Shown: positions 2,560 to 56,746, counted from the stretch's first letter. The stretch: 64,000 bases of DNA from Promethearchaeia archaeon (GCA_036478875.1 JAZGEW010000068.1:4-64003); one strand, 5' to 3'. The notes: generated by a model not told the origin, from the sequence alone. A program made the numbers and translations.

Positions 2560-2672
2560 TGAAAGGGAATCTTATTATTCATAGAACTAGGATCAAAAAT
2601 ATTCAAAATTTCAATATTTCAGTTCTGATATATCCTAATAACCTATTTATCTATTAGTAAAAATAAAAAAAA

Positions 2673-4128: not shown

Positions 4129-4130
4129 CT

Positions 4131-7809: not shown

Positions 7810-7913
7810 AATTAAAACTTTTTTTTTATTTATTTCTTAAGAGAATATTTTTTATTCGTGGTTGGGTGTTAAATTCAATAAATTAAAAAAAAATAGATTA
7901 GAATTAAAACAGA

Positions 7914-39832: not shown

Positions 39833-39885
39833 AAATATATATGATTATTACTATTCATTATTTTAAAATTGGAAGTGAAAAAAAA

Positions 39886-40263: not shown

Positions 40264-40398
40264 TTTCTTTTTATATTCTTTTTATATTTTAGAAACGTTT
40301 TTACTTCTTAAATTTAAAAATTGGACTCCAAATTTTTTTAATTCAATTAAGATCTCCTATAAATTAAATAATAAAAAGCAATTTGGAGTGATAGAAAA

Positions 40399-40767
40399 AT
40401 GTATTGTCCAAAATGTAATAAAAATGTATATACTAAAAAGAATGATTTTAATATTGGTCTAGCCATATTTTTAGCTATATTTACTGGTGGTATTGGCTTA
40501 TTAATTTATGTTGCTGTTTATTTAGATAGGGAACATAAACCTCGTTGTATCCATTGTGAATCAATCTGTTATAAACAAATGGAAATTAATCAACCAGTTT
40601 CAAATTATCAGGTGATTACTACCTCTAATCAAGGGCAAAGTCAAGAATTCATCTTAGAATCACATAAAAGTAAAGGAAATTCAAGGTTTTGTCATAATTG
40701 TGGATCTGAGCTAGATCTAAGTGAAAATGCTAAATTCTGTGCACTTTGTGGGAACTCAACACAATAA
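40399..40767 (+). CDS. LITAF-like split zinc-knuckle membrane protein with C-terminal zinc ribbon (paralog 3 of 3)
   Basis: 'YCPKCNKNVYTKKNDFNIGLAIFLAIFTGGIGLLIYVAVYL...RCIHC' followed by 'FCHNCGSEL...FCALCGN'. Confidence 0.6.
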   Translation: MYCPKCNKNVYTKKNDFNIGLAIFLAIFTGGIGLLIYVAVYLDREHKPRCIHCESICYKQMEINQPVSNYQVITTSNQGQSQEFILESHKSKGNSRFCHNCGSELDLSENAKFCALCGNSTQ

Positions 40768-41690: not shown

Positions 41691-42592
41691 TATACCATCC
41701 CAAGAACTTCAATGATTTTATTTTTCATTAATTCAATATTTGGTTTTCTATTAGTCCACCATTCAAAAGCTAATGCACCTTGATTTACTAACATATCTAA
41801 TCCCCCAAGTGTGTTGCATCCTTTTTCAGTTGCCTCTTTTATCAATTTCGTCTTTATTGGATTATACACTATATCAAAAACTAACATGTCCTTATGTAAA
41901 AATTCAGCTGGAATTGGTGATTTTTCAACATTAGGGTACATTCCTAAAGGAGTAGTATTAACTAAAATATCAGCTTTCTTAGATTCTTCTTTTAAAACGC
42001 GAATACTATTATTTTTTCCTTCGATATTTATCCCAAATTTCATTTTTATTTCATTGGCAAGCTTTTCTGCTCTTTTTTCTGTTCTATTTGCTATTACTAT
42101 CTTATTTGAATCTTTAGCCATAATAAAAGCTAGCGCTCTTGCTGCTCCACCAGCTCCTAATAATAAGATATTTTTTCCAGAAACCTTATATCCTGCATTT
42201 AATAACGCCCTCTTAGCTCCTTCTGCATCTGTATTTCTACTACTTAAATATCCTCCATCATTTTTTATTGTGTTAACTGCACCGATTTCTTGTGCTAAAG
42301 GGTCGACTTCATCTAAATATTCCATAATTATTTGTTTAAATGGGATTGTTATATTTATTCCTTTAATATCAAATGTCTTAATTCCGTCTACAGCAAGCCT
42401 TAACTTTGTAGGCAAAATATTAAAAGCTAAATAAATATAACTAAGGTTTAATTCACGGATCGCAGCATTATGCATTATTGGACTCATAGAATGCTCAATT
42501 GGATACCCAATCACGCAAAGAACTTTTGTATGGGGAGAAATGTAATCTTTCTCTGACATATCAAATAATTTTCCACTTAATTTTCTATTCAA
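41690..42592 (-). CDS. aroE: shikimate dehydrogenase
   Basis: 300 aa with 'GVIGYPIEHSMSPIMHNAA', 'NITIPFK', 'NTD' and 'LLGAGGAARA'. Confidence 0.85.
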   Translation of the reverse strand: MNRKLSGKLFDMSEKDYISPHTKVLCVIGYPIEHSMSPIMHNAAIRELNLSYIYLAFNILPTKLRLAVDGIKTFDIKGINITIPFKQIIMEYLDEVDPLAQEIGAVNTIKNDGGYLSSRNTDAEGAKRALLNAGYKVSGKNILLLGAGGAARALAFIMAKDSNKIVIANRTEKRAEKLANEIKMKFGINIEGKNNSIRVLKEESKKADILVNTTPLGMYPNVEKSPIPAEFLHKDMLVFDIVYNPIKTKLIKEATEKGCNTLGGLDMLVNQGALAFEWWTNRKPNIELMKNKIIEVLGMV

Positions 42593-42737: not shown

Positions 42738-43292
42738 ATGAAAAAAGCATCTTTAAATCCAAAAATCTCTACTTTTCCAATGCCTGTAGCAGTAATTTCG
42801 GTAGGCACAGGAGAAGAAGCAAATTTAATCACATTAGCCTATGTAGGAAAAGTTTGCGCTGATCCCCCCATTGTTGTTGTTTCTATTCGACCTACACGAC
42901 ATTCATATCAATTGATTGAAAAACATAGCGAGTTTGTAATTAATTATCCAACAATAGAGCAATTAAAAGAAGCAGATTATTGTGGTACGCGTTCTGGAAG
43001 GGATGTTAATAAATGGAAGGAGTTAAACTTAACAAGAGAAGAAGCTACAGTAGTAAAAGTTCCTATGATAAAAGAGTTTCCGTGGAATATGGAATGCAAA
43101 GTAATAAATAAAATAGAATTAGGAACACATGTCTGTTATTTTGGTAAGGTTGTTGTAACACACTCAGATCCTAAGTATCTTAAAGAAGATTCTTTAGATC
43201 CAGAAAAATTTAATTTTCCCGCATATATTGCAGGTAATTACATCGAACTTAATAAAGGAATTTTAGAACAACAGGGATTTTCGGTAGAATAA
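42738..43292 (+). CDS. flavin reductase-like FMN-binding split-barrel protein
   Basis: 184 aa. 'FPMPVAVISV...NLITLAYVG...PPIVVVSIRPTRHSYQLI' is typical of the flavin reductase domain. Confidence 0.7.
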   Translation: MKKASLNPKISTFPMPVAVISVGTGEEANLITLAYVGKVCADPPIVVVSIRPTRHSYQLIEKHSEFVINYPTIEQLKEADYCGTRSGRDVNKWKELNLTREEATVVKVPMIKEFPWNMECKVINKIELGTHVCYFGKVVVTHSDPKYLKEDSLDPEKFNFPAYIAGNYIELNKGILEQQGFSVE

Positions 43293-43359: not shown

Positions 43360-43890
43360 ATGTCTAAAAATTCCATTGCTCTTATTGGTTTTATGGCGAC
43401 TGGAAAAACAACCGTAGGTAGAGCGTTAGCTAAATATATTGGTGATGATTATCAATTTATTGAAACTGATCAATTAATAATTCAAGAAACTGGTAAAGCA
43501 ATTCCGAGTATTTTCACTGAAGAAGGAGAAGATAAATTCAGAGAATATGAAAGTGATGTATGTGAAAAAGTCTCGAAATTAAATAAAGTGGTTATTTCTT
43601 GTGGAGGAGGAATAGTCTTAAATAAGAAAAATGTTGAAAGTATAAAGAAAAATTGTCACATTGTCTTACTAAGGGCATCTCCGAAGGAAATTTATGAACG
43701 AATAAAAAAAAATGGAAAAACATCAAGACCTGTCATTAATATAAAAGATTCTAAAAGAGATATTAAAGAAATTCTGAAATTTCGAAAACCTTATTACAAA
43801 GAAGCAGCGGAAATTATTATTGATACATACAAAAAAAATATTGAGAATATTGTGAGAGAGATTGCTATAAAAACTCTACTAAAAACCTAA
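43360..43890 (+). CDS. aroK: shikimate kinase, P-loop AroK/AroL type
   Basis: 176 aa with 'IALIGFMATGKTTVGRALA', 'DTD', 'FREYE' and 'ISCGGGIV'. Confidence 0.85.
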   Translation: MSKNSIALIGFMATGKTTVGRALAKYIGDDYQFIETDQLIIQETGKAIPSIFTEEGEDKFREYESDVCEKVSKLNKVVISCGGGIVLNKKNVESIKKNCHIVLLRASPKEIYERIKKNGKTSRPVINIKDSKRDIKEILKFRKPYYKEAAEIIIDTYKKNIENIVREIAIKTLLKT

Positions 43891-43949
43891 ATTTAAATTT
43901 ATCAATTTTACTAAATATTTAATTTATTATATATGATAATTTGGTTAAC

Positions 43950-44149
43950 ATGACGGAATTTAAAAGAGTTAAATGTCCCCAATGTGGCAATGAGAATCCA
44001 CGTAAGCTTTATGAAGAGCCGGACAGGAATAACGTGCTTTACTACAGTATAGGCAAAGCTATTTCAGCTAACCGCTGAAGCAGGGCACTCCCGTTTATGC
44101 GAAAACTATGAAGTGTGGAAATTGCGGAAATCTTTTTAAAAAGAGTTAA
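43950..44149 (+). pseudogene. disrupted small zinc-ribbon gene (two CxxC halves in different frames)
   Basis: Frame A reads MTEFKRVKCPQCGNENPRKLYEEPDRNNVLYYS... and stops at 44076-44078. A second frame continues ...QGTPVYAKTMKCGNCGNLFKKS to a stop at 44147-44149. Together they would form a four-Cys zinc ribbon. Confidence 0.3.
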
Positions 44150-44188
44150 TTTATTAAAAAAAAAGTTTTTTTATTTATTTTTTTATTT

Positions 44189-44809
44189 TCACATCAAGGA
44201 TAACACTATTTTATTTTGAGCTTTTAACATGTCTTCCATAATAAGCTCCATAGCATCTTTAATATCCGGGTTATTATCAGGAATACTACGTTTAGCGTTC
44301 ACACTTGCCATTAAAACTTCATTCAATCCACGTAAGATCATATCAGGACTGTACCAAGGGCGTTTCGAAGCCCACCATTGCTGACAGCTGTGAATTCCCC
44401 GATCTAACAGATTTCTTGCGTTATCAAATATCCTTTTCTTCTCATCATCCATTCCATCCCGATATTTATCAGAGAGATGGATTAACGTAAGGGCGTACAT
44501 GAAAAACCGGTGTTGTTCAAGGTGAATTTCATTGTTAGGGTCGAGCCAGAGAGGAAATGGCACATCTGAAGCAATATCGTAGGGCATTGTCGACCAACTG
44601 GAATCTCGTGGGACTTGATTAAAGCCTTTAGGAAATTTATCAACTATTTCCGAGACAGTACATAATTTCACGTCGTCTCTATGTGGCAACGCACCAAATA
44701 GGGGTATGAGGAAATCCTTTATAGCGTGTTTTTTGGAAGTTTTTCGAATCTTTTCCCACTTTCGTATAATATTACAAAGATACAAAGGGGTTTTCGTGAT
44801 ACGGTACAT
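44189..44809 (-). CDS. hypothetical protein, possibly a C-terminal fragment of a larger (GH57-like?) enzyme
   Basis: 206 aa with clearly higher GC than its surroundings. 'DSSWSTMPYD...FPLWLDPNNE...IHSCQQWWASKRPWYSPDMI' loosely recalls GH57 C-terminal regions. No credible N-terminal catalytic part lies upstream. Confidence 0.3.
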   Translation of the reverse strand: MYRITKTPLYLCNIIRKWEKIRKTSKKHAIKDFLIPLFGALPHRDDVKLCTVSEIVDKFPKGFNQVPRDSSWSTMPYDIASDVPFPLWLDPNNEIHLEQHRFFMYALTLIHLSDKYRDGMDDEKKRIFDNARNLLDRGIHSCQQWWASKRPWYSPDMILRGLNEVLMASVNAKRSIPDNNPDIKDAMELIMEDMLKAQNKIVLSLM

Positions 44810-44928
44810 ATATTTCGTGATACGCTATTTTGGGGGAATTTAGATTAATTGAGAATTTTAAAAGTGTGGTTTTTAAGATAGTTTTATAGGATTTTTTTTG
44901 AGGAATCGCTAGTTGGAGACGTAAGTTC

Positions 44929-45174
44929 ATGGGGAGGAAGAGGAAATTCGGGGAAGAGTCGGATTTTGTAAGCGTTCGTGTTCCAAAGAGCAAGAGAAAG
45001 GAGTACAGAAATGCAATTCGAGATTTTGTAGAAAAGAAGTTTGCGAGTGATTCTACTGCTGATAGTGAAGTTTCCAAAGTCAAGATTAATAAAAAGGATT
45101 TAAACGGATTTCGGAAATTTGAGAAGTTTTTAAAGGATGTTAAGAGGCAGGATGACAGGGAAGAACAGGAATAA
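44929..45174 (+). CDS. small basic protein, possible ribbon-helix-helix-like DNA binder
   Basis: 81 aa. 'FVSVRVPKSKRKEYRNAIRDFVEKK' has a beta-strand-then-helix pattern like CopG/RHH proteins. Its stop overlaps the next ATG (TAATG). Confidence 0.35.
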   Translation: MGRKRKFGEESDFVSVRVPKSKRKEYRNAIRDFVEKKFASDSTADSEVSKVKINKKDLNGFRKFEKFLKDVKRQDDREEQE

Positions 45175-45416
45175 TGGGTTGTAATAAGCTAAATTATTTA
45201 TATTCGAACCTCTTAGTATTTTTTATGGGAAAGTGTCCATATTGCAGTAAAGAACTTCATATAGAGGATTTCTATGAATCTATTACAAAAGAGACGAAAA
45301 AAGGAGAGGTTAAAACAAGATTAGGACCGTTTATAGGGGAGACAACACCTGGAGGATTTGCTTATATGTGGGTTTGTCCATCCTGTGATACCATTTTGGG
45401 ATTTACAGGACATTAA
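45174..45416 (+). CDS. small zinc-ribbon protein
   Basis: 80 aa, or 63 aa from the internal 'MGKCPYC' at 45225. It has CPYC ... CPSC knuckles and is coupled to the upstream ORF by an overlapping stop/start. Confidence 0.4.
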   Translation: MGCNKLNYLYSNLLVFFMGKCPYCSKELHIEDFYESITKETKKGEVKTRLGPFIGETTPGGFAYMWVCPSCDTILGFTGH

Positions 45417-45530
45417 TGGTATTAGCTATGTACTTAAAGTATCTTTACTCATAAGGGAATTAAGGAGAAATGCAAGGAAAAGAGGAAGAGAAGGAGTAGT
45501 GGATAGTAGGTTAGTTTATATTTATTTTGC

Positions 45531-45553
45531 GAAACCACCCCTTCGGTGGTTTC
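45531..45553 (+). other. perfect 9-bp stem / 5-nt loop hairpin (GAAACCACC-CCTTC-GGTGGTTTC)
   Basis: Read directly from the sequence. It is GC-rich relative to the genome and sits in a ~400-nt region without a convincing ORF. It could be a terminator or part of an ncRNA. Confidence 0.3.
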
Positions 45554-45819
45554 TGCTGCTTCCGACTGCTCATTTTCAAAGGGTACTCGGTTCTTTTGCT
45601 CATTTCATATCGCTTCAGAACCGTCGCTCCTTTAAAAATTCGATTGTGTGTAAGAAAAGCGCCTTATTTCTAGACCTGTATAGGAGATTGGGTAACTGGT
45701 TTTTTGCATAAATGTAAAATATTTATAAATCCATTAATTTTCTAATTTAAAGAGGTAGAAAGTACAATAAATTAATATTTAAAGAAAGGTAACTGTACCT
45801 GTACTTAAAAACCATTATT

Positions 45820-46827
45820 ATGTCAGAGAAAAAGGATATGAAAAAACGAGTTAAAGAATTTTTAAATGGTAATGAAAATGATTTTTATTCCCAAATTAAA
45901 GATAAGTCATATTTAGAATATCACTTCGGAGATATTGAAGAACAAGCAGACTTATTAAAGGACATAAATAAGTTACGAGAAATTGTTCATTTGTTTACTG
46001 ATAATTTTGATAAATTAGCAATTGGTACAGGAATGATTGATAAGGATTTATATCAACAAATAAACAACATTATAAAAGTTTCCTTTGAATTCAATACTAA
46101 AAAATTCTATATATTAGTGGGATTGTTTTTATCTCACATCGAAACAAAATACCCGTTCCATAAGTTAACGTACAATCTACTATTCATCCGAGAAAATTAT
46201 CCAGAATTTTACAAATTATTTAAAGAAACACCATTATCTGGACTACAAAACCAAATTGTCTCTACGCTATATAAATTGATTGAAGAAAAGCAAGAAGATC
46301 AATTTTATGACTATTTTTTTGATTGGGTACTTAAATTTGGTTACTTAATCGAAGCCTATGTGAAGGAAATTTTGATATTTCATCAAGGATTGGATTATCT
46401 TCTAAAAAATAAGAATTTTAATGAAATTAAAAAAAAGGATTTAACTGTAGGAAATCTAGTTAGGAATTTAAAGGCTGATAAGACAATCGCATTATATCGG
46501 AATTCAATATTCCATACAAGCTTTCTCCTACATTATAATATTAATCTTGAAGAGAAAAAGATTACTTTTCTAGATTTATATGGTAAATCTAAAATTATTA
46601 CCATAGAAGAGTTTATTGCAGGTTATTTTAAATTACTCAAGGTTGTATTTACTTACATCTGTGCAATAATATTCCATCCTTTTATCGTTTATAAAGAAAC
46701 AATCAAAACTTATTTAAAAAAGAAAATCGATCCTTTTCTCCGAGAATTAACTAAAATTGACAAGGATGATTTTATTAAGAAAATGAAAGAAATCCAAGAA
46801 GATCTCGATAAAAGATTTAACAAATAG
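45820..46827 (+). CDS. hypothetical protein with HEPN-like R-N-x3-H motif
   Basis: 335 aa, predicted all-helical. 'ALYRNSIFH' (46498-46515) matches the Rx4-6H HEPN RNase motif. Confidence 0.45.
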   Translation: MSEKKDMKKRVKEFLNGNENDFYSQIKDKSYLEYHFGDIEEQADLLKDINKLREIVHLFTDNFDKLAIGTGMIDKDLYQQINNIIKVSFEFNTKKFYILVGLFLSHIETKYPFHKLTYNLLFIRENYPEFYKLFKETPLSGLQNQIVSTLYKLIEEKQEDQFYDYFFDWVLKFGYLIEAYVKEILIFHQGLDYLLKNKNFNEIKKKDLTVGNLVRNLKADKTIALYRNSIFHTSFLLHYNINLEEKKITFLDLYGKSKIITIEEFIAGYFKLLKVVFTYICAIIFHPFIVYKETIKTYLKKKIDPFLRELTKIDKDDFIKKMKEIQEDLDKRFNK

Positions 46828-47093
46828 ACGATGTTATACTATAATCTATTTCTTTAAATTAGATCTCAGAATCGAAGGAAAGTCTACAACATTAAAGAAA
46901 TATTTGGATAATTTGTCAGCATCTGATATATTTGAGGAAAGGGAGGGGACAAGGCTTAAGGTTCGAAAAATTTTGTAGTTTCGCTTATTATAAATATAAT
47001 AGATATTGGTATTGATGAGCATGAAGTTTGTGGTTAATTGTGCTTGACGCTGAAAGTCTTTAATCTAATTAGGTTTTTGCTTCGCGACTGTAC

Positions 47094-47108
47094 GGGGGAC
47101 AAGCCCCC
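47094..47108. terminator. GC hairpin GGGGG-ACAAG-CCCCC between convergent genes
   Basis: It lies 20 nt downstream of the stop of the minus-strand gene 47128..48141 and downstream of the plus-strand gene ending at 46827. The stem is unusually GC-rich for this genome. Confidence 0.35.
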
Positions 47109-47127
47109 GCTATCTATAATTTAATGA

Positions 47128-48141
47128 CTACTCTAAAAATAATTTCTTAAGATCTTCTTGATCAGAATCTTCATTTAACACAAGTTCTAAAAAAGATAAC
47201 ATGAATTCAGACATTTCACTTTCTTTAGGGGAATACTCTTTCATACGTTCAGTCCGATATTTTATAATTTCTTTATCCCTCTTAGATTTAAAGATTGGTT
47301 TTAGTTTATCTTGAAAATTTTTAAGAAATTCAAATAACCCTATCATGAATATATTAGCTATATTTTGCTCGTTTAATTCCTCACCAATTTCAAGGTTGAG
47401 TTGTTCATGCTTTATTGGAAAATTATCTAAAAGCATATTAATAAAAAAATCCTTTAATTCAGGAGTCACATTTTGAAGTTTGTTAATTTTTTCAAGTGAA
47501 TCTTCGTCGAAAGCTTCCATACATTCTACTAAGCCTGATAGAGTCTTAATTAAGATTTCGAAATTTTCAGAATCTATTTGTTCGGGTTCGCCAAATTTCT
47601 TATAGACGTCTCTCTCAACTTGGAGATATGGAATTGCTTTTTCTAATTTAATTTTAAGACTTTCAGCATGTCTTTTAGTAATATGAGTAGGGCTTAAAAA
47701 GTTAGTCTTGGCGTTATTTAGAGACACATAGATACCATGAATCCGTAAATACCATAGATTTTCTGCTTTTTGTATTTCTTCTGAGAACTTATGTACTTCT
47801 GTTTTGTTTATCTTATTCTTACTTTGGAGTAATAGTTCATATAATTTGCTTAGATACCCGAATGGCTCTTGAGTTGTAAATAAACTTATTATATTTGGAA
47901 TAACAAGCTTTTTTCTATGATTAAGGAATTTTTCAAGCTTTTGTGGTTTGGGTGTATCATAATTCTTTAAAATAAAATATGCTACACCCATTTCTTCAAA
48001 GGCAGTTATAAAAGAAAAACAAGCATGCCCGTATGAGCCGTTTTCCATTAATAATTTTCCATCCTCATATAATTGAATAACATTTCCAATAGAAATATCG
48101 ATTCCCTTTTGCCACGTTTCTACATTCAAAAACTCACACAC
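47128..48141 (-). CDS. AbiV-like (HEPN-superfamily) abortive-infection-type protein
   Basis: 337 aa. The N-terminal 'NVIQLYEDGKLLMENGSYGHACFSFITAFEEMGVAYFILK...FLNHRKKL' resembles the AbiV-family helical domain. Confidence 0.4.
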   Translation of the reverse strand: MCEFLNVETWQKGIDISIGNVIQLYEDGKLLMENGSYGHACFSFITAFEEMGVAYFILKNYDTPKPQKLEKFLNHRKKLVIPNIISLFTTQEPFGYLSKLYELLLQSKNKINKTEVHKFSEEIQKAENLWYLRIHGIYVSLNNAKTNFLSPTHITKRHAESLKIKLEKAIPYLQVERDVYKKFGEPEQIDSENFEILIKTLSGLVECMEAFDEDSLEKINKLQNVTPELKDFFINMLLDNFPIKHEQLNLEIGEELNEQNIANIFMIGLFEFLKNFQDKLKPIFKSKRDKEIIKYRTERMKEYSPKESEMSEFMLSFLELVLNEDSDQEDLKKLFLE

Positions 48142-48300
48142 CTCAAACTTAATTTAATTATAAATCTGAAATTTTGCCTACTTAATATGATCATAAAAAT
48201 ATCAAGATATAAATAATACTGTCAACCTTAAAATTGAAATTAAAACTGGAAGATGAAGGATGGCTTAGTATGAATACCTTTAGTCCTTTTTAATTTTTGA

Positions 48301-48447
48301 TTATGAAATGGTGAAAATCTGGAGTTCATAATCTTTATCTGGGTTTATTTTACCTGAGCGAATATATTCAATGGGGATATTGAAATAATAGTTCTTTCCT
48401 TTCTTTGTGGGTTTTTTTATGAGCGTGGTAACTAATCTTGATTCCAT
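48301..48447 (-). CDS. small (48 aa) AbrB/SpoVT-like DNA-binding protein candidate
   Basis: Manual translation gives MESRLVTTLIKKPTKKGKNYYFNIPIEYIRSGKINPDKDYELQIFTIS. The 'yyfnIPieyir...i...d.eL.i' pattern resembles swapped-hairpin AbrB domains. It is divergent from the 48587 operon and below the ORF-track cutoff. Confidence 0.3.
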   Translation of the reverse strand: MESRLVTTLIKKPTKKGKNYYFNIPIEYIRSGKINPDKDYELQIFTIS

Positions 48448-48471
48448 AGTATACTATTAAGTAATATACTA
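48447..48471. promoter_or_regulatory. imperfect inverted repeat TAGTATACTA-ttaag-TAATATACTA at the divergent promoter region
   Basis: The 10-nt arms carry one mismatch. The repeat overlaps the start codon of the small minus-strand ORF and is followed by the TATA-like ACTATATATAT. Confidence 0.25.
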
Positions 48472-48586
48472 TATATATGTTTTGATATAATACACAAAAT
48501 CAACTGGGTCTAAGGAGATATAAGGGCAATAAATATTATTCTAAGTATAACACTTGATCTAACACTAATAAAAGATGTGAATCAAA

Positions 48587-48901
48587 ATGAGCATAATAGT
48601 TGGCAGAAAGCACGGGAATGGGTATCATGATAGTGTTTACTGCAGAATAAACGTTGAATATTCTGAGAAATTTAAGGATCTGCTAGACTATGAACAGCGT
48701 CAACTAAAAGAGCATTCGGGAGTCATTTATGAACGGGAATTTATAGCTTCGTGGATTAAAAGAATTTGTATTAAATGTCCTTTAACGTATCCTAGGAAAT
48801 ATTTGGAAAAACAAGGTAATATTTTTGTATGTCCAGAGTGCGGATTGAAAAAAATACCTAAAGGGGTAGCATATAGAGAGGGGAAGAAAGCAAATGGTTA
48901 A
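48587..48901 (+). CDS. zinc-ribbon protein, first gene of the island module
   Basis: 104 aa with 'CIKCPLTY...VCPECG'. It overlaps the next ORF by 8 nt. Confidence 0.45.
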   Translation: MSIIVGRKHGNGYHDSVYCRINVEYSEKFKDLLDYEQRQLKEHSGVIYEREFIASWIKRICIKCPLTYPRKYLEKQGNIFVCPECGLKKIPKGVAYREGKKANG

Positions 48902-49097
48902 AGTTACAATTCTGGAACGGAATAAGGACTTTCTTATAAAGGAAATAAGGTATAAAAAAGCCCGTTTTAATAGAAAATTCAGAGATAAAACAGTAATTTT
49001 AGCATATGTTAATGAGAACCTTAACAACATATTAAATAATAGAAATCTGAAAGAAATTGAGAATACCGATAAATTAACTAACTCCTTTTTTTTATAA
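48894..49097 (+). CDS. small basic hypothetical protein
   Basis: 67 aa and Lys/Arg/Asn-rich. It overlaps the upstream ORF, and its coding status is uncertain. Confidence 0.3.
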   Translation: MVKVTILERNKDFLIKEIRYKKARFNRKFRDKTVILAYVNENLNNILNNRNLKEIENTDKLTNSFFL

Positions 49098-49143
49098 CTT
49101 TTAATAAATTAATGAACAATGAAAATAAGAATTAAAAAAAGTC

Positions 49144-51483
49144 GTGATCAAAATTATGGATGTTTCAGTAAAAAATCAATGTAAGTATAAGCAGTGGTTA
49201 TTAAAAAAACCATTTCAAAAAGACTATGAAGATAAGCTATTGAACTTTTTAGACGATTATATTAAAAAGCTTACCCTTCCAGCGACTTACAAGAGATTAT
49301 CATTTACTATTTATAGAGATATTTTACATTCAATTGAGAGTACTCCTGAAGAGTCTAAATTTAATGTATTTTATGAAAATCTTGATATAATTAAAGGAGC
49401 TAGATATATATCAGCTTCCTTATTATTGCTTGCCCTTTTAAAAAATGAAATAACCATTAAACAGCAAGATTTAGCTCTATTGTTAAATTTAAATAATCAA
49501 TTTAATATTAGCAGAACTTTCAATAGTTTAATCACCTACTTAAAGCGACTCCCAAGCTATTCATACATTTATAGGTTTATTTCTGTTAGAAATCTATCGA
49601 AGCAGGAATATAAAAATGCATGTTTAGAAAATATTAATTATTTTTCTAATCTTTTAATTAGGCAAAATCTAATTAATGAAAATGAGGTTGATGCCATTGT
49701 ATTGTTGTTTACCACGCTTTATGATAAAATTATTGAAGAATTAAATAGTGTAATGCTAAAGCATCCTAAATATATAGCTTCTACAATTTGCTGGATTTAT
49801 TTAACCTATTATAAGGATTTTGATATCACAGGCACTCAATTTGTAAGCATAATTCATTTGAGAAAAGATACCAGATTTAAAGGAAACAACAAATTGACTG
49901 AAGATATACTTATAACCGATCCCCGATTATTATCAAAAATTAAGAACGATTTTATTCGAAAAATTTTCGAGTTAGATTTGAATTTATATAAATCTAAAGT
50001 AAAAACCTGCTTAGATGATTATATATTTAAAATAAAGCTTTGGTTTATTCACTCTTTTCCAAATAAAGTTCAACTCAAACATATTTTAAACCTGTTAGGT
50101 CAAAAGTTCTTGACAGAGAGTTTTGAATTATTTGACAGAGCAATTGAAAATGGGTTTCAAATAAATTATTTTGCTAAAACGAATAAGCATTATTACTATT
50201 TTCCGCAAACGATGGCACTTTCTTTAATTTTTTATACTTCAAGAAGCGATAAAGCCCTTCAAGAAATATTAAATGTCAAATTTTTCGAAGCGGTATTTAA
50301 ATCAGATCCGAGTCTGCTTTATTTTAAAAGATCTTTTAGGTATATTACTGAAAAGGAGAATCGCTTATATTCGTTCATTAAAGAGGAGATCGGACGATAT
50401 AAAGGACAAGTCTATTCAAAAGACTCATTTAAGAAAAAATTAACTCATGAGTTAAAACGATTTTATCATTTAGAAACTGATTTCTTGCTTAAACTATACA
50501 ATAAGACTAATCTTTCCCCTTTTGAATTCGGAAAAAAATTAAATATTCACAGCGGACGTGGGGTTACGAGTATTTTACAAGTGGTAGAGAACAAATCTAA
50601 ATTCACAGAACCAAAAACCTTTTTGAACATTAGGAAATTCATCATAAAGTATCTTGAACCTAAAGAACAAAAAAAAGCATTAATATGGCTGAAGAATATT
50701 AGAAATTTACGTTATAATGACTTTCGGCATGGAAGTATCACGTATTCTTTTAAATGGATTAGAACGAGATTTACCAAATTTTTAAATAATTCCCTCTATC
50801 GATACCTTTTTAAACTTTGGAAAGGGAATTATCCAAGGCATATTTTTGTAGATCCTAACAACACCCGTGCTTCAAATCTAAAATTTCACGGAACAAAAGA
50901 AGAACACGTTAAGACTGACATAATAGAGCAGTATTTTTATAATTTTCTTGAAATTTATGATTCTAATTATTATTTATGTCGTCATGCTAGAAGTGTATTT
51001 AGCCATTACAGAATCAATAAGATAGGTAAACAGCCAGATCATCCCCCTATTTTAAATTATATTCTATCCGAAGAAAAGAAAGCTTTAGCTATAGAGATTC
51101 CCGTATGGAAAGAAAGTAATAATCTTGGAAATACTGAATATTTTATTGGTCATATTGATTTGTTGTTAGTAGAGGGTGATACTTTAGTAATTGCTGATTA
51201 TAAGCCAAAATTACGGGAAATTTATAAATCCTTACTGCAAATTACCGCATATGCCATCTTCTTAAGAGATAGATTAGAAAATTACAGTGAAAATGCGAAT
51301 ATTAAGATAAAGTGTGTTGGTTTCACAAAAGATCAGGCAATCGAATGGAATCCAGAGACAATATTTCCTAAAATAATAGAATATGTTGAAAAAGAAAATG
51401 AAAACCGAAAAAATATTCTGTTAACCGCTAGTAGAAAAATTAAAAAAGATTTATTAAATGAATTAAGAAAAATAAAACAATAA
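49144..51483 (+). CDS. large helical-repeat protein with C-terminal RecB-family PD-(D/E)xK nuclease domain
   Basis: 779 aa, starting at GTG 49144 or ATG 49156. The C-terminal motifs are 'AIEIPV', 'GHIDLLLVEGDTLVIADYKPK' (51148-51210; D672 with D685-x-K687) and 'LLQITAYAIFL' (the QxxxY motif of RecB/Cas4-like nucleases). Confidence 0.6.
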   Translation: MIKIMDVSVKNQCKYKQWLLKKPFQKDYEDKLLNFLDDYIKKLTLPATYKRLSFTIYRDILHSIESTPEESKFNVFYENLDIIKGARYISASLLLLALLKNEITIKQQDLALLLNLNNQFNISRTFNSLITYLKRLPSYSYIYRFISVRNLSKQEYKNACLENINYFSNLLIRQNLINENEVDAIVLLFTTLYDKIIEELNSVMLKHPKYIASTICWIYLTYYKDFDITGTQFVSIIHLRKDTRFKGNNKLTEDILITDPRLLSKIKNDFIRKIFELDLNLYKSKVKTCLDDYIFKIKLWFIHSFPNKVQLKHILNLLGQKFLTESFELFDRAIENGFQINYFAKTNKHYYYFPQTMALSLIFYTSRSDKALQEILNVKFFEAVFKSDPSLLYFKRSFRYITEKENRLYSFIKEEIGRYKGQVYSKDSFKKKLTHELKRFYHLETDFLLKLYNKTNLSPFEFGKKLNIHSGRGVTSILQVVENKSKFTEPKTFLNIRKFIIKYLEPKEQKKALIWLKNIRNLRYNDFRHGSITYSFKWIRTRFTKFLNNSLYRYLFKLWKGNYPRHIFVDPNNTRASNLKFHGTKEEHVKTDIIEQYFYNFLEIYDSNYYLCRHARSVFSHYRINKIGKQPDHPPILNYILSEEKKALAIEIPVWKESNNLGNTEYFIGHIDLLLVEGDTLVIADYKPKLREIYKSLLQITAYAIFLRDRLENYSENANIKIKCVGFTKDQAIEWNPETIFPKIIEYVEKENENRKNILLTASRKIKKDLLNELRKIKQ

Positions 51484-51590
51484 TCCTCCACTAAATATTT
51501 AAGATAGTAAGGGGATTAAAATCGCAGAATAATAAATTAATTTAAAAATTTCTAATCTTTTTCAATATATAAGAATTAATTTTTAAAAAA

Positions 51591-52445
51591 GTGGTGAAAT
51601 TAGGAATGCCAAATGCAATATTTTTAGAAGAATACTCATTATATAGAAAATTTGACTATAATCTCCCTCCTATTGTAAGTTTTCCTAAGTTAAGTATTAA
51701 TATGAAATGTCATAATTGCAATGATAAAAGGACATTTATTGGTATGAATGCTTTTTACATAGAGCAAAGTGAAAATATTGATTGTGATCGGTATAGGGAA
51801 ACTAATAGGATGCCGAAAGAAAATAGTCATTATATTTTAAGATATGTTTGCGCTTCTTGTAAAAAGTTCGAACGTTTTTTCATATTAAGAGTTGGTAAAA
51901 ATTTAAAACAAATTTTGAAGATTGGTCAATATCCTCCAAGGGATATTACAATATCTAAAGATCTAGAAAAGATCATGGGTGTTTTTTCTGAGTATTATAA
52001 AAAAGGTTTAATTTGTGAATTTCAAGGTTATGGGATTGGTGCTAATGCTTATTTTAGAAGAATAGTTGAAGGAATTATTGATGATTTATTGGTACAAATC
52101 CCTGATCTAATGAGTGGTGAAGAAAGAGCCCTATATGAAAATGCTTTAGAAGAATCGAGAAAAGCAAAAAACACTCAGGAAAAAATTGCCTTAGTAAAAG
52201 ATTTACTCCCTCCTATTTTAATGCCAGAAAGATATAATCCTTTAAAGACGTTACATGAGGTATTAAGTAAGGGTATACATAACCTTACAGATGAAGAATG
52301 TTTGGAGAACGCTCAAATTATAAAAGACACGTTGATTTTCCTTATAAATAGCATTTTAAAAAGAAAGAAAGAGCAACAAGAATTTTCAGAAGGAATGAAA
52401 AAACTTTTAGAGAAGAAGAAAAAAACAACAGAAATTAAAAAATAA
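51591..52445 (+). CDS. zinc-finger protein with DUF4145-like (HEPN-related) C-terminal helical domain
   Basis: 284 aa, starting at GTG 51591 or ATG 51606. It has 'CHNC ... CASC' knuckles. 'GANAYFRRIVEGIIDDLL ... LHEVLSKGIHNLTDEE' resembles DUF4145. Confidence 0.45.
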   Translation: MVKLGMPNAIFLEEYSLYRKFDYNLPPIVSFPKLSINMKCHNCNDKRTFIGMNAFYIEQSENIDCDRYRETNRMPKENSHYILRYVCASCKKFERFFILRVGKNLKQILKIGQYPPRDITISKDLEKIMGVFSEYYKKGLICEFQGYGIGANAYFRRIVEGIIDDLLVQIPDLMSGEERALYENALEESRKAKNTQEKIALVKDLLPPILMPERYNPLKTLHEVLSKGIHNLTDEECLENAQIIKDTLIFLINSILKRKKEQQEFSEGMKKLLEKKKKTTEIKK

Positions 52446-52490
52446 AATAAGATATTAAAGAAACCTAAAACTAAACTTTAAAAAAATTCA

Positions 52491-53660
52491 ATGAAAATCT
52501 TAGTTCCTGATACAAATCTTTTACTTCATGGAAAATTCATTTCTGAGATTAAATGGAGATCTATCCTTAGAGAGAAAAAGATATGTATATTAATACCACA
52601 TATGATTTTAAAAGAATTAGATAAAGCTAAATATTCAAGCAATACAAATCGTAAAAAAAGAGCAAGGAAATTGATATCTTTTTTCAAGAAATATGAAAAT
52701 AATGAGGAACTTCAGAGGGAAATACCTTTATTCTTTTCTTCTAAAAAGATTAATTGGAGTGATCTCCCCTTGAATTATGATTATTTGCTAGATGAAAATG
52801 AAGCAGATCACCATATACTTGCTGAAATTATACAATATTTCCTTGATCGCTTAGATGATGTATATTTAATTACTGGAGATTTTACACTTTCCAAATTTAC
52901 TTTAGAATTAGGAATAAAGGTAATAGATTGGCTAGAGGATGAAAAATATAAAGATATATTTACACTAGGGGACGAAAAAAAAGAAAAAATGCCTAAACTT
53001 CCTGATTTAGGTTTGTTTTTTGATGAACAATCAGCCAAAGAGTTAACTCTTAAAGAAAAAGATAAAAAACCGAAATTATTGAGTCGTGATGAATTAACTG
53101 AACCTAATGTCCAATATGATATTAAATGGGAACTTGAACATCCAGGAGTTATTAACAATCTGATAAAGTGTTATAATGAGCAATTACTCTTAATCAATAA
53201 ACATCAAGAAATCAATTTATTTGTATTCAACCATTGTGATCACCCATATAATGATATTGACATTTATATTACAGCAACTTTAGAAAAAAATTTCGTATTT
53301 ACTGTGCAACAATTAATAAAATTGCCCCGTAAACCCATAATACCCGAATTAAATGTTAGTTATGTAGGTGATATTCCCTTAAGCCCTCAAGAAGGAATTT
53401 ACAACACTGGAAGTAGTAAAAGGACTATACTAAATAATCTCGGTATGAGAATAGAGTCAGAAGAGAAAGAAAAGCATACTATTTGGAAAGTTATTTATCA
53501 TATGGATCGAATTAAACATAATACATCTATGGAACTCCATCCCCTATTACTATTTATTCCCGATTCATATAAAACCAAAAAAATTCAAATTAAGATTGCT
53601 TATACTCACGAGGAGATAGGTACAATTAAAGCACAGATAAGAACCATTACTCTAGCTTAA
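52491..53660 (+). CDS. PIN-domain nuclease (YlaK/PhoH-associated PIN type) fused to an unknown ~230-aa C-terminal domain
   Basis: 389 aa. The acidic residues fall in the canonical PIN pattern: 'ILVPDTNLLLHG', 'LIPHMILKELDKAK', 'ENEADHHILAEI' and 'YLITGDFTLSKFTLELGIKV'. Confidence 0.6.
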   Translation: MKILVPDTNLLLHGKFISEIKWRSILREKKICILIPHMILKELDKAKYSSNTNRKKRARKLISFFKKYENNEELQREIPLFFSSKKINWSDLPLNYDYLLDENEADHHILAEIIQYFLDRLDDVYLITGDFTLSKFTLELGIKVIDWLEDEKYKDIFTLGDEKKEKMPKLPDLGLFFDEQSAKELTLKEKDKKPKLLSRDELTEPNVQYDIKWELEHPGVINNLIKCYNEQLLLINKHQEINLFVFNHCDHPYNDIDIYITATLEKNFVFTVQQLIKLPRKPIIPELNVSYVGDIPLSPQEGIYNTGSSKRTILNNLGMRIESEEKEKHTIWKVIYHMDRIKHNTSMELHPLLLFIPDSYKTKKIQIKIAYTHEEIGTIKAQIRTITLA

Positions 53661-54034
53661 ATTAAATATATTCAATTGTATAACAGCAATAATAAAGAAA
53701 ATTAAATTTAAAAAATGATTATAAATGGATTTAAATATATGGCGGAAGGGATTAAAATTATCTAATGAAAATATTACACGCTTAAGAGATAATGGATTAA
53801 TTCTAATGGAAAATCATTTATGATTGTATATTATGCTTGTAAAAAATTTTATCTTTGTATAATATTATACAAGCTAAAAGGGTGTTTAAAATAAAATCCT
53901 CTTTTATTATAAAAAAATTAAAAGAAAAGTGATAAAATGAACGATTTAAAAAAACAAAATATACTACCATATAATAAACTAAAAATCCTACTTTTTTTAA
54001 TCTTTATAGTTCTAATTTTAGAAATTAGAAAATT

Positions 54035-54787
54035 TTAAAGAAAATTAGGAAATAAATGGTATATCTCTCTCATTTCATCAATATTTATTTGCCCAGGGGC
54101 AGTTTTTTCTTCTAGGGAAGCGTATGTTAAAAATGAACCAATAGTGACACACATAATCCGAGAGAAAATCCCTAGTGTCCCCATACAGAATGAAATTAGT
54201 TTTTGTGCTGAATTAGAGAATTCTTTACATAATCTTAATGGTATTATGTTATCTTCAAAGGTTTGAGCAGTAAAAACAACTTTATAAATATTATTTTGAT
54301 ATATTTTAGGGTTTAGAGATGACTCTTGATTTAATTTATTACTGAAATTTTGAATAAGCTTGATTGTTTCATCAAATTCTATTGTTTTTTCAAAATTATG
54401 GTATGAATAAATTATTTTTACTTCTTTTTCAGAAGCTAAATTAATGATTTCCCATAAGATGTTTTTATTAGTATTCATCTCAAAGTCAATATAATCAGGT
54501 TTAGCCTCTATAAACATTTTCAGGATTTTATAGCGTTCTTTTTGATTTATTTTGATTTGTCCACCTTCAGATGAGTCTCTGAAAGTAAATATCACAGGAA
54601 TATTAGAGGTAATAATAACCATTAATTCCTTTATAAAATCTAACGAAAGTGTTTGAGCATTATTTATATAATCAAATCGTAATTCAATCAGATTAGGATT
54701 TTTTTTTATTGTTTTATCCAAAATCGGTTTTATTTCACTTATATTCGCGGATTTAATTGGAATTGGAATGCAAATATTATATTTCAT
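54035..54787 (-). CDS. aroD: 3-dehydroquinate dehydratase, type I
   Basis: 250 aa with 'NLIELRFDY', 'PVIFTFR' and a later 'FCMG' region consistent with type I DHQase. Confidence 0.7.
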   Translation of the reverse strand: MKYNICIPIPIKSANISEIKPILDKTIKKNPNLIELRFDYINNAQTLSLDFIKELMVIITSNIPVIFTFRDSSEGGQIKINQKERYKILKMFIEAKPDYIDFEMNTNKNILWEIINLASEKEVKIIYSYHNFEKTIEFDETIKLIQNFSNKLNQESSLNPKIYQNNIYKVVFTAQTFEDNIIPLRLCKEFSNSAQKLISFCMGTLGIFSRIMCVTIGSFLTYASLEEKTAPGQINIDEMREIYHLFPNFL

Positions 54788-54823: not shown

Positions 54824-55462
54824 CTATATTTCTACTATATTTTTAATATCATCATTAGTATATTTTAATGTGTCTGTGGCATCAACTTTTTTTAGTTTTC
54901 CTCTTTTCTTATAATATTTAATTATAGGTTTCGCATTTTTCTCGTATGCATCTAATCTATTTTTTAATGTTTCTTCATTATCATCACTTCTTTGTTCGAA
55001 TTTAATTTCAGCGCCACATTTATCACATTTTCCTTCCACTTTTGAAGGAAGAGTGTATTTATTGTATATTTCTCCACAGTTTTTACAGCCATATCTGCCC
55101 AATATTCTTTTAAATATAATATCTCTGGAAACTTGTAGTAACAAAAGTAGATCTATTTCAGTTATGTTCTCTAAGAACTCAACTTGATTCATATTTCTTG
55201 GGAACCCATCCAAAATCCATGATTTATCTTTGATCTGTTCTAATCTATCCTTAATTATTTCATTGGTTAGACTATCAGGAACTAATTCTCCCTTATCCAT
55301 ATATTCTTTAGCTTTTAATCCTAATGGAGTTTCATTTTTTAGGTTTTCTCGAAAAATATCTCCTGTACTTATGTGAGTGATATCTGGTAATATTTTTTTT
55401 ATTTGACCAGAAAAAGTTCCTTTACCAGCTCCAGGTGGTCCAAATAATATTATTTTCTTCAT
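54824..55462 (-). CDS. adk: adenylate kinase (long, Zn-lid bacterial/eukaryal type)
   Basis: 212 aa with 'LFGPPGAGKGT', 'ISTGDIFR' and the lid 'CKNCGEIY...CDKCG'. Confidence 0.9.
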   Translation of the reverse strand: MKKIILFGPPGAGKGTFSGQIKKILPDITHISTGDIFRENLKNETPLGLKAKEYMDKGELVPDSLTNEIIKDRLEQIKDKSWILDGFPRNMNQVEFLENITEIDLLLLLQVSRDIIFKRILGRYGCKNCGEIYNKYTLPSKVEGKCDKCGAEIKFEQRSDDNEETLKNRLDAYEKNAKPIIKYYKKRGKLKKVDATDTLKYTNDDIKNIVEI

Positions 55463-55550
55463 GAATTATCACAATATTTTATTTTTAATTTGTAGATAAT
55501 TTAATTAGACATTAATTAAAATTGTTTTGCCAAATTGGATTTACTAAGTT

Positions 55551-56164: not shown

Positions 56165-56746
56165 TTAGAAAAAATCCTCCCATGTTATTCTTGCTTGTTT
56201 TAAAACCATTAGAATTATGAACCCAATAATACATCCCGGAATACAACTTAATGCAAATAATCCCCAATATGTATAAAGGCTCTCAATCGCAAAAATGCTA
56301 CCAATAGGAGCAATTAAATGCCCAATAGTTCCTCCTAAAAAAATTGTTCCCAATGGTTCTGTAAAAGCAGCGAATTCAACATATTTAGGAAATTTTTTAC
56401 GTAAAAAGTGAGATACAATTCCAACTACAAAAGCCCCGGTAATACCTCCATGAAACGCATGAATTGTCCCAATTGCGAATGAAAATCGAAGTATCGCAAT
56501 ACCTAATGCTGTTATACACGAAAAAATTAAACCAAGCAAAACACCAGTTATCGCGTTGATGAAGTGAGCAAAAGGGTTAATTTTTGTCCCGAATATTGTA
56601 AAATATCCAAATGGATTAAGATAACTTAAAACTAATCCAACTGCTATAAAAATTCCTGAAGTAGCTGTTTTTTTATTTATAGAACTTTTTAATGATTTTT
56701 TCTCTTTCTTATCATTGTAAGGTTTCTGTTCATTCATCGTTCTCAC
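56165..56746 (-). CDS. ThiW-like ECF-transporter S-component membrane protein
   Basis: 193 aa with ~5-6 TM helices. 'INPFAHFINAITGVLLG' and 'IHAFHGGITGAFVVG' resemble the ThiW family. Confidence 0.45.
   Translation of the reverse strand: MRTMNEQKPYNDKKEKKSLKSSINKKTATSGIFIAVGLVLSYLNPFGYFTIFGTKINPFAHFINAITGVLLGLIFSCITALGIAILRFSFAIGTIHAFHGGITGAFVVGIVSHFLRKKFPKYVEFAAFTEPLGTIFLGGTIGHLIAPIGSIFAIESLYTYWGLFALSCIPGCIIGFIILMVLKQARITWEDFF

Follow-up and report, generated by a model that had tools for sequence, protein, structure and literature searches.

A truncated island of defence-type genes inside a broken GH57 gene between aroK and aroD of a Lokiarchaeia genome

What lies between aroK and aroD in this Lokiarchaeia genome, and how did it come to be there? 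The stretch in question covers positions 43891-54034 of the window, by which we mean the whole 64,000-nucleotide piece of DNA that was analysed. An original prediction from the sequence alone had taken the entire stretch for an accessory island of about 14 open reading frames (ORFs) dominated by predicted nucleases, and had preferred a defence island, or a decayed integrated element of an undescribed type, to a provirus or an insertion sequence (IS). This interpretation stands: the stretch holds a real accessory island of defence-type genes, decayed and without standard mobility machinery. It is supported by the absence of the island in close relatives, the interruption of a host gene of the GH57 family, the content of defence-type nucleases, the lack of a recombinase or att repeats, and the truncation of the island. 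The extent of the island and several gene labels are revised below.

The interrupted GH57 gene and the island boundaries

Related loci, denoted by L numbers, were collected in two scans. A protein scan for aroD over one genome per GTDB species gave 11 Asgard loci, which were then searched by tblastn with all window proteins, and a metagenome scan with an alignment of a GH57 gene, denoted X, gave 80 loci. X is a 401-aa (amino acid) gene between aroD and aroK that matches PF03065 (Glyco_hydro_57) at 8.4e-40. In L005, L006, L007, L009, L011 and L012 the order is adk-aroD-X-aroK-(flavin reductase)-aroE-tyrA, and in L004 adk-aroD-X is visible up to the contig end. The native order is also found in metagenome contigs (L024, L029, L031-L035, L037, L040, L050 and others), and the arrangement aroD-(64 bp)-GH57-aroK, with GH57 alone as the separator, is present in about 30 related Asgard loci. 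Since X is 74-94% identical across the contigs with native order and occupies the same place in many of them, it is a conserved host gene. Direct adjacency of aroK and aroD, which the original prediction had suggested looking for, was found only in L008 and L010, where X is missing; elsewhere the conserved GH57 gene lies between them. Apart from X, none of the island ORFs was detected by tblastn in the 11 aroD-fetched genome loci, and most of the 80 metagenome loci are without the island.

In the window, X is broken. When the intact X of L006 was used as a tblastn query, the window matched residues 222-401 only, with 89% aa identity, and the N-terminal 221 residues had no match in the window; the remnant contains no stop or frameshift. 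Island-free relatives match the window at the nucleotide (nt) level up to 44732 and again from about 53930. The island proper (44733 to about 53946) is 9.2 kb of DNA foreign to the locus, and the 0.84 kb at 43891-44732 are host DNA, composed of the native 3' spacer and X codons 222-401. The span first assigned to the island was therefore too wide on the left, and while the broken genes noticed at that end are broken, part of them is the host GH57 remnant and not the island.

The right edge has a different history. The segment 53839-53962 is 89% identical to L016 12517-12647, and its L016 counterpart continues into a complete 410-aa gene with the start MNDLKKQNI. This island gene and the GH57 start have 16 nt of A/T microhomology in common, at 53947-53962. 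As the island gene is cut to 9 codons in the window and the sequence switches to X at the microhomology, the right edge is a lineage-specific deletion across the 16 nt, in which the rest of a longer island and X codons 9-221 were lost. A right junction at 'GH57 codon 12' common to the window and L016 was rejected, because L016 12609-12647 is the start of the intact 410-aa gene.

The left junction, together with about 200 bp of non-coding island end, is conserved in L016, L018 and L020, and in these three genomes and the window the island enters GH57 at codon ~219-222. The X remnant begins at CATCATGTAAAACATGC (H219) in L016 and L020, and 8 nt further on in the window and L018; across all four, the insertion points differ by no more than 8-11 nt. 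At this point intact X has a perfect 5-nt inverted repeat, CATGT-AAA-ACATG, directly after the conserved DGETFGHH stretch. L003, whose aroD is 91% identical to that of the window in aa and whose aroD-adk segment is 94% identical in nt, presents the other side of a break at the same place: its X is broken at codon 216, with residues 1-216 kept and joined to a truncated DUF87 gene, and carries a premature stop at codon 17. The right-hand junctions vary by genome, lying at GH57 codons 8, 28, 67, 155 and 216. There is no target-site duplication, 6-9 nt of the target being missing between the C-terminal and N-terminal X remnants, and no att repeats flank the window island. A 34-nt similarity between 44761-44794 and 53854-53887 was considered as terminal repeats and rejected; the two stretches, which run in the same direction 30-90 nt in from the island ends, are copies of a promoter-like motif that precedes an island gene in each case, and L016 has kept both.

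Could the whole structure be an assembly artefact, that is, a chimeric contig of a metagenome-assembled genome (MAG) joined at repeated GH57 sequence? GH57 segments are indeed repeated, and inverted, in related genomes, and assemblers do break here, as the contig L088 starts exactly at codon 222. However, four assemblies made independently from different samples, among them NCBI MAGs and JGI metagenomes, have the same left junction and 200-bp island end, a clean microhomology at the right junction runs into 91-96% identical host DNA, and the window belongs to a contig of 122 kb. We consider an artefact scarcely credible.

The recurrent scaffold and its variable slots

In tblastn and blastn maps, the scaffold of the island was seen in five other contigs (L016/L017, L018/L025, L019, L020 and L104). 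The common layout is aroK>; <X(219/222-401); conserved end, 81-aa>; slot 1; <48-aa; (104-aa> 67-aa>) 779-aa>; slot 2, where > after a name stands for the + strand and < before a name for the - strand. L016, L018, L019 and L020 carry the scaffold at the GH57 locus, where it abuts the same GH57 break in three of the five contigs (L016, L018, L020). L104 carries it at another site, with the 81-aa and 48-aa genes, a 28%-identical 779-aa homologue, a 76%-identical 284-aa homologue and no X remnant at the left flank. L016 and L104 lack the 104-aa and 67-aa genes. In the window, slot 1 holds an 80-aa zinc ribbon, a 335-aa RNxxxH protein and an AbiV protein of the HEPN superfamily, and slot 2 holds the 284-aa protein and a PIN protein.

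Longer copies of the island were found in L016 (~14.5 kb) and L018 (~17 kb). In L016, L018 and L019 an intact inverted X copy with its own conserved upstream region comes after the island, followed by AbiJ_NTD4, HI_0787_N, DUF4145 and DUF87 genes, and in L016 remnants of the native X 5' end and of aroD follow that gene run. The inverted GH57 copies, including those of L027, L028 and L082 (Table 1), lie within the broken native gene, and their upstream region (..agtattatcaatattacaat..) is unlike the native spacer. A separate mobile paralogue clade of these copies was not supported by a neighbour-joining (NJ) tree, the distinct upstream region being nevertheless shared. A shufflon-like switch between the remnant and the inverted full copy was also set aside: all three loci with both copies show one orientation, and the two copies of a genome share only 82-88% identity, so that there is no sign of frequent exchange between them.

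Considering that the window island is truncated on the right, we asked whether it is what is left of an integrated virus or plasmid, the integrase and the replication or structural genes having been lost with the deleted part. The 284-aa protein belongs to phrog_25239 and has relatives in phage and plasmids, the adjoining aroD 3' end is an integration site of the classical sort, with repeats in L003, L004 and L016, a rudivirus TFB is among the fold matches of the 779-aa protein, and viral TFB homologues exist. The longer copies, however, also lack such genes: in L016, L018, L019 and L104 no integrase, transposase, replication gene or structural gene was found, nor any capsid, terminase, primase or partition gene. 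The island ORFs themselves gave no integrase, transposase or viral hallmark gene in Pfam, NCBIfam, PHROGs and PADLOC, as the original prediction had also reported for integrase, transposase, tRNA target and att repeats. Scans of IMG/VR with the 779-aa and 284-aa proteins returned nothing, and the 779-aa protein has no phage match. Likewise, the signs of a provirus or an integrative and conjugative element (ICE), namely an integrase, att sites, a tRNA or 3'-end target, and replication, structural and transfer genes, are absent from the window island and the longer copies, and those of an IS or transposon (transposase domain, terminal inverted repeats, target-site duplication) were not found either. 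No tRNA and no Rfam family was detected in the 64-kb window. A viral or plasmid remnant is very unlikely in our estimation.

The largest scaffold protein, of 779 aa, is predicted to combine a helical N-terminal part with a C-terminal nuclease. The motifs E651, D672, D685-x-K687 and Q699..Y703 are invariant in the alignment of its family. Its own match to PDDEXK_1 (4.7e-4, 20.6 bits) is under the cut-off of 22, and 9 of 45 family members match this model, the score given for P0197 (22.1 bits) being above the cut-off; with this sub-threshold score of its own, the protein is still the RecB-type PD-(D/E)xK protein that the original prediction had recognised. The AlphaFold model has a predicted local distance difference test score (pLDDT) of 63 and is good for residues 20-520. 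In Foldseek, it matched TFIIB-repeat proteins in BFVD (E 1.1e-4 and 4.1e-4) and TFIIB cores and cyclins in the PDB (E 0.016-0.05), with weaker RecB-like fold matches for the nuclease part, whereas neither a Pfam TFIIB match nor an N-terminal Zn ribbon was found. The model supports a TFIIB-like cyclin-repeat fold joined to a predicted PD-(D/E)xK nuclease. Homologues of the complete protein are rare, 6 among 5.8e9 proteins; its profile finds 280 representatives, in many of which the C-terminal ~250 aa occur by themselves or behind other N-terminal domains. Sequence searches of the PDB with the 779-aa family, AbiV and the PIN protein gave nothing useful. In L073, from a more distant lineage, there are 5 nt between the end of a 779-aa homologue (1335-3457; 45% identity across the final 51 residues) and the stop of an intact, convergent GH57 gene (119-1330), which is undisrupted.

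The small scaffold proteins of 81, 48, 104 and 67 aa have no Pfam family assignment. Homologues of the 81-aa protein are found at the same position in L016 (75%), L018 (71%), L020 (61%) and L104 (59%). The 48-aa gene is divergent to the 104/67/779 operon and is kept in L016, L018, L020 and L104 (there a 49-aa ORF). The 104-aa protein is 83% identical in L018, and its match to the TFIIB-ribbon model is at E 0.21. The 67-aa protein is 98.5%, 94% and 77% identical in L018, L019 and L020, respectively, compared with 63-87% for the adjacent 779-aa protein; in L018 its neighbours, the 104-aa and 779-aa proteins, are 83% and 69% identical. As such, the 67-aa ORF is either an unusually constrained small protein or contains an embedded nucleic-acid signal.

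From this arrangement one could propose that the 48-aa regulator, the 104-aa Zn-ribbon protein, the 67-aa and 779-aa proteins and the adjacent HEPN protein form one new multi-gene immune system, and that the rest are unrelated neighbours. The 48-aa/779-aa order and orientation are kept in the window, L016, L018, L020 and L104, the window, L018, L019 and L020 have the 67-aa gene in front of the 779-aa gene, and the near-complete conservation of the 67-aa protein in L018 stands beside a 69%-identical partner. Where the slot-1 side of the 779-aa homologue is seen, HEPN-superfamily genes occur in 4 of 6 loci: AbiV in the window, Hypoth_Ymh in L016, DUF4145 in L020, and a weak HEPN_Swt1-STAND match upstream of the 779-aa homologue in L023. 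In L104, a 249-aa slot-1 protein has the bare RNxxxH motif (RNQASH). AbiV, Ymh, DUF4145, AbiJ and Swt1-like proteins are all families of the HEPN superfamily (PMC3710099). The occurrence of the nuclease module alone or with many N-terminal domains is also as often seen in defence effectors. On the other hand, PADLOC gives the 779-aa protein weak Cas4-like matches at 2e-3 and nothing more, two of the proposed components are lacking in L016 and L104 as described above, the family is very rare, and the sole argument is guilt by association. A dedicated immune system of this composition appears to us unlikely.

Among the slot genes, the 337-aa AbiV-like protein is the best recognised, with 56.1 bits for PF18728 (cut-off 27.1) and 46.7 bits for TIGR04498 (cut-off 27), and is predicted to be an RNase toxin or an abortive-infection effector. 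In PADLOC it is the only significant match of the island, so that this search recognises AbiV and leaves the other island genes unassigned; PIN and PD-(D/E)xK are nuclease folds of a generic kind. Two HEPN-like proteins had been announced; AbiV is secured by Pfam, TIGR04498 and PADLOC, and the 335-aa protein is HEPN-like by its RN[AS]IFH motif. In 15 aligned members of the latter family, FDWxLKFGYxxE..K and R227-N-x-I-F-H232 are invariant, and the all-helical AF2 model (pLDDT 78) has no significant PDB match, with AbiV appearing only at E 3.4. The 80-aa zinc-ribbon protein has no homologue in related islands. The 284-aa protein has more than 960 homologues in archaea and bacteria; a Rhizobium phage and plasmids from Leptospira and Bacillus encode proteins with ~30% identity to it. 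It had been described as a DUF4145-like zinc-finger protein, a label that does not hold: neither the protein nor 30 diverse relatives match DUF4145 (PF13643) at E<=0.1, and BLASTP against the bona fide DUF4145 proteins of L018 was negative, although one relative carries the UniRef label 'DUF4145 domain-containing'. The PIN assignment of the 389-aa protein is confirmed by PIN_4 (44.5 bits, cut-off 21.9; profile positions 1-130 of 132), and this protein is 82% identical in L019, beside the same 284-aa homologue.

Three non-coding elements accompany these genes. In the left island end, two TTTCGTGATACG boxes (44792-44803 and 44813-44824) lie 21 bp apart upstream of the 81-aa gene; the box is found nowhere else in the window (0.07 occurrences expected) and is conserved in other islands, and the pair is likely an operator or promoter. 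The 122-nt element at 45524-45645 is far more similar to L016 than its surroundings and contains the hairpin GAAACCACC-CCTTC-GGTGGTTTC. Its fold has two hairpins and a single compensatory pair, with z-scores of -4.05 (+ strand) and -5.31 (- strand); the wider region 45410-45720 does not fold significantly (z -1.3), and Rfam has no match. We regard the element as a candidate small RNA. The spacer between the convergent 335-aa and AbiV genes is similar to L018 2957-3238, which adjoins non-homologous genes. The AbiV stop codon is closely followed by a GC hairpin, GCGGGGGCTTGTCCCCCGT, and the - strand of the spacer has a 58-aa ORF; the overall fold of the spacer is not significant (z -0.6). Because lactococcal AbiV has an RNA antitoxin, this spacer could, by analogy, encode a partner of AbiV.

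Origin and spread of the island

The flanks of the island are a mosaic. Compared with L024, which has an intact X and an empty site, the right flank is 91-96% identical in nt, the X remnant 83-88%, aroK 70-77% and the flavin reductase gene ~90%, and this shift of identity along the flanks places the island at a recombination boundary. In comparison with L024, aroK has changed more than any of its neighbours: its aa identity is 68%, whereas aroD, adk and the flavin reductase reach 87-89%. The aroK of L018 is 97% identical to that of L024; the divergence of aroK points to mosaic recombination around the island. L003 and L024 are 95-96% identical, yet X is broken in L003. As a separate observation, identity to L024 falls to 79-83% at 55057-55500 within adk, with 92-97% on either side, which looks like a short recombination tract inside that gene.

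The locus receives other DNA as well. In L003, L004 and L016 the aroD 3' end has taken up inserts bounded by imperfect direct repeats (139-226 nt, 71-91% identity; Table 1), and this end is a recurrent integration site. The duplication was rejected as the source of att sites for the window island, since it is absent from the window. In L004, a 195-aa gene next to adk is also partly duplicated (6277-6858 and 7874-8125), with ~1 kb between the copies. Extra DNA between aroD and X or between X and aroK was found in L026, L030, L039, L047, L052, L060, L064, L071 and L084. Other inserts at the locus include the defence types DUF4145, HerA/DUF87, AbiJ_NTD4, AAA_21, mad3/mad8, PD-T7-4 and AriA/Old/GajA-like. 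The aroD-GH57-aroK interval is an insertion hotspot with mixed content.

We consider it probable that the window carries a truncated, decayed and non-autonomous defence-type island in a broken GH57 gene, one of a recurrent Lokiarchaeia family exchanged by flank recombination. Its arsenal would be of the defence or abortive-infection type, with RNase toxins (HEPN, PIN) and a DNA nuclease, which small DNA-binding regulators may hold in check until infection releases them. The island would have travelled between lineages with its junctions by homologous recombination in the conserved flanks, that is, aroK and the GH57 3' half on one side and the GH57 5' end and aroD on the other, whereas the later deletion across the 16-nt microhomology, which took its right part and GH57 codons 9-221 in this genome, is seen directly in the sequence. 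Spread by this route is suggested by the lack of a recombinase and of att repeats, and by the longer copies also being devoid of mobility genes.

Several observations weigh against this explanation. AbiV is the sole member of an experimentally validated defence family in the island, and the uncharacterised scaffold (81, 48, 104, 67 and 779 aa) could serve mobility or regulation instead of defence. The other inserts at the locus include ordinary genes (DUF364, GH20, TPR, thiolase-like), and it is not purely a defence hotspot. Flank recombination is deduced from the identity mosaic against a single relative, and the related loci are all MAG or metagenome contigs, in which assembly errors at repeated GH57 segments are possible. 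Conserved gene order and host-like composition had been named by the original prediction as contrary evidence; the order is seen in five other contigs and the composition of the window island is host-like, with a distribution of the scaffold that is patchy and not clade-wide. Furthermore, the C-terminal X remnants of the window, L016 and L018 have dN/dS values of 0.03-0.06 (dS 0.8-1.5), equal to intact copies, and no stops or frameshifts, which is not expected of a passively carried pseudogene. With the remnant under purifying selection, either each lineage gained the island very recently, with a 3' half (its own or that of the donor) that had been functional until shortly before, or the fragment still has a use. 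Finally, the shared palindromic insertion point and the inverted spare GH57 copy in complete islands are unexplained by a plain defence-island model.

These last two features can be accommodated by a homing-like island, in which the 779-aa protein would cut CATGT-AAA-ACATG (GH57 codons 219-223) in an empty allele, with GGGCATCATGTAAAACATGCGATT as the putative cleavage substrate, and repair would copy the island; full-length copies would carry the inverted GH57 in replacement of the disrupted one. The same insertion point in the window, L016, L018 and L020, the complementary L003 remnant ending at codon 216, and the perfect inverted repeat directly after DGETFGHH all fit such targeting. Every locus with enough context (the window, L016, L018, L019, L020 and L073) links the 779-aa family to GH57, an intact inverted GH57 with its own upstream region follows the island in L016, L018 and L019, and the same scaffold with a 28%-identical homologue is at a different site in L104. 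That the C-terminal remnants have kept their reading frames also agrees with conversion events that were recent and repeated. However, the proposed cleavage is read from sequence alone, and we know of no precedent for a homing unit of 10-15 kb or for a homing nuclease with a TFIIB fold. The right-hand junctions differ in every genome, the inverted GH57 copies form no clade of their own, and in L028 and L082 the inverted GH57 lies in a different break (codon 338/339), with no 779-aa gene in the short contig seen. In addition, one old insertion followed by ordinary recombination explains the shared junction equally well. We give homing only a small chance, and hardly more than a slim one to a gene-targeting selfish element in which the 779-aa protein would recognise and cut the palindrome, the 10-17 kb island would be copied into the break from an occupied allele, the inverted GH57 with its own promoter would compensate the host, and defence cargo would pay for carriage. 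Between an immune effector, a homing or mobility nuclease and a regulator, all are candidates for the role of the scaffold core.

In composition the island is host-like, with a GC content of 0.284 against 0.302 for the window and tetranucleotide z below 2. Its left 1.8 kb had been held to be GC-richer than anything else in the window, but the region 3801-5600 is richer (0.381 versus 0.364), with the richest 400-bp window at 4601. The GC excess of the left part comes mainly from the X coding remnant (0.40); a structured RNA behind it was dismissed, as there is no tRNA or Rfam match. Of the roughly 14 ORFs counted earlier, about 11 are real island genes, namely ten NCBI calls and one uncalled 48-aa ORF.

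The flanking genes named earlier, tyrA, aroE and aroK on the left and aroD and adk on the right, are confirmed by Pfam (Table 1). The usual shikimate kinase of most archaea is of the GHMP type; that of the window is of the bacterial SKI (AroK) type, and its position is kept across the Asgard loci seen. Upstream of tyrA, at 39440-40767, three tandem paralogous small proteins (130, 140 and 122 aa) have double zinc ribbons, with a membrane segment in at least one, and their gene order is kept in relatives.

Table 1. Coordinates of the features described in the text; positions refer to the window unless a contig is named.
Feature	Position	Strand	Remarks
tyrA	40782-41690	-	Pfam
aroE	41690-42592	-	Pfam
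Flavin reductase	42738-43292	+	Pfam
aroK, SKI family	43360-43890	+	Pfam 1e-43
Host GH57 (X) remnant ORF	44189-44809	-	codons 222-401 at 44192-44732, then 26 codons into the island end
Non-coding left island end	44733-44928	+	82-85% nt identity to L016, L018, L020; 75% to L104
RHH-like 81-aa gene	44929-45174	+	RHH label from sequence pattern only
80-aa CxxC...CxxC zinc-ribbon protein, slot 1	45174-45416	+	weak zinc-ribbon Pfam matches, E 1e-3 to 0.07
Structured non-coding element, 122 nt	45524-45645		92.6% identical to L016 4547-4668
335-aa protein, slot 1	45820-46827	+	rare family, 18 members; HEPN-like by motif alone
Spacer between convergent 335-aa and AbiV genes	46843-47127		82.5% identical to L018 2957-3238
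AbiV-family HEPN, 337 aa	47128-48141	-	PF18728 HEPN_AbiV 6.4e-15; TIGR04498 3.8e-12; PADLOC AbiV 1e-8
48-aa AbrB/SpoVT-like gene	48301-48447	-	label by eye; not in NCBI record
104-aa protein	48587-48901	+	C-terminal zinc ribbon, sub-threshold Pfam matches only
67-aa scaffold protein	48894-49097	+	unusually conserved
779-aa core protein	49144-51483	+	~500-aa helical, TFIIB-like N-terminal part (modelled); predicted PD-(D/E)xK C-terminal nuclease
284-aa zinc-finger protein, slot 2	51591-52445	+	phrog_25239 2.7e-41
389-aa PIN protein, slot 2	52491-53660	+	PF13638 PIN_4 2.3e-11, residues 4-146; unassigned C-terminal 230 aa
Right deletion junction	53839-53962	+	promoter-like region and first 9 codons (MNDLKKQNI, from 53937) of deleted island gene
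Host X 5' end	53947-54034	-	first 8 codons 53947-53970 (MVVYFVFL) and native 64-bp spacer to aroD
aroD, type I	54035-54787	-	Pfam
adk	54824-55462	-	Pfam
thiW	56165-56746	-	Pfam
Insert at aroD 3' end, 5.1 kb	L003, repeats 862-1002 and 5947-6087		1192-aa ORF without Pfam match and 75-aa zinc ribbon
Insert at aroD 3' end, 0.3 kb	L004, repeats 10676-10814 and 10974-11112
Insert at aroD 3' end, 2.2 kb	L016, repeats 18016-18241 and 20211-20436		HTH and Rce1-like protease
Intact inverted second GH57 copy	L016 14425-15627
Intact inverted second GH57 copy	L018 10903-12105
Intact inverted second GH57 copy	L019 4987-6189
Intact inverted second GH57 copy	L027 1480-2664
Intact inverted second GH57 copy	L028 423-1622
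Intact inverted second GH57 copy	L082 1263-2096

Significance and comparison with known systems

Archaeal, and especially Asgard, immunity is poorly mapped beyond CRISPR, restriction-modification, Argonautes and viperins (PMC12988326). The aroD-GH57-aroK interval is a defined hotspot from which Lokiarchaeia accessory genes can be harvested systematically, and the recurrent scaffold would join a TFIIB-like fold to a RecB-type nuclease in an architecture that is uncovered by the Pfam, NCBIfam, PADLOC and PHROGs models searched. One palindromic insertion point in four genomes and an inverted spare GH57 in three suggest gene targeting. Should the island prove to be no more than a decayed defence island, it would be an ordinary case, if a well-documented one.

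Individual proteins of the island have known counterparts. In lactococci, AbiV consists of the HEPN RNase AbiV1 and the RNA antitoxin abiV2 (bioRxiv 10.1101/2024.05.05.592566; PDB 9bj6). The 337-aa window protein resembles it in scoring above the cut-offs of the AbiV models, and differs in its length, a 180-aa C-terminal extension and an archaeal host. No sequence match to the solved AbiV structure is detectable, and no antitoxin RNA was identified for the window AbiV, the adjacent candidate spacer at 46843-47127 having no significant fold. The C-terminal part of the 779-aa protein resembles the Cas4/RecB-family nucleases (PMC5704561) in its E...D...D-x-K...Q-x3-Y motifs and in its weak Cas4 and PDDEXK_1 matches, in contrast with sub-threshold scores of its own, the lack of a CRISPR context and the fusion to ~500 aa of TFIIB-like repeats.

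As a mobile unit, the island shares with homing endonuclease genes a precise palindromic target in a strongly conserved part of a conserved gene, a nuclease in the insert, and empty and occupied alleles in relatives. Unlike them, it is a multi-gene cargo of 9-17 kb and not an intron or intein, its host gene is destroyed and not spliced, its predicted TFIIB-fold/PD-(D/E)xK nuclease is without precedent, and its right junctions are variable. The likeness to proviruses and ICEs in gene 3' ends is confined to the neighbouring aroD 3' end in L003, L004 and L016 and does not extend to the window island, which is without an integrase or direct repeats and interrupts a gene in the middle, where no 3' end is restored.

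Defence islands are a class of integrated elements reported in Asgard genomes (PMC11529989; for the general concept, PMC3632139 and PMC12988326). The window island departs from them in having a fixed scaffold of five uncharacterised genes that is present in five other contigs, in occupying, in four genomes, one exact position within a conserved gene that is thereby disrupted, and in containing one recognised defence family. It is like them in being patchy in close relatives, in its nuclease and toxin genes, in the turnover of its slots and in the lack of mobility genes of its own, and, as with defence islands, the neighbouring inserts at the locus carry other defence families.

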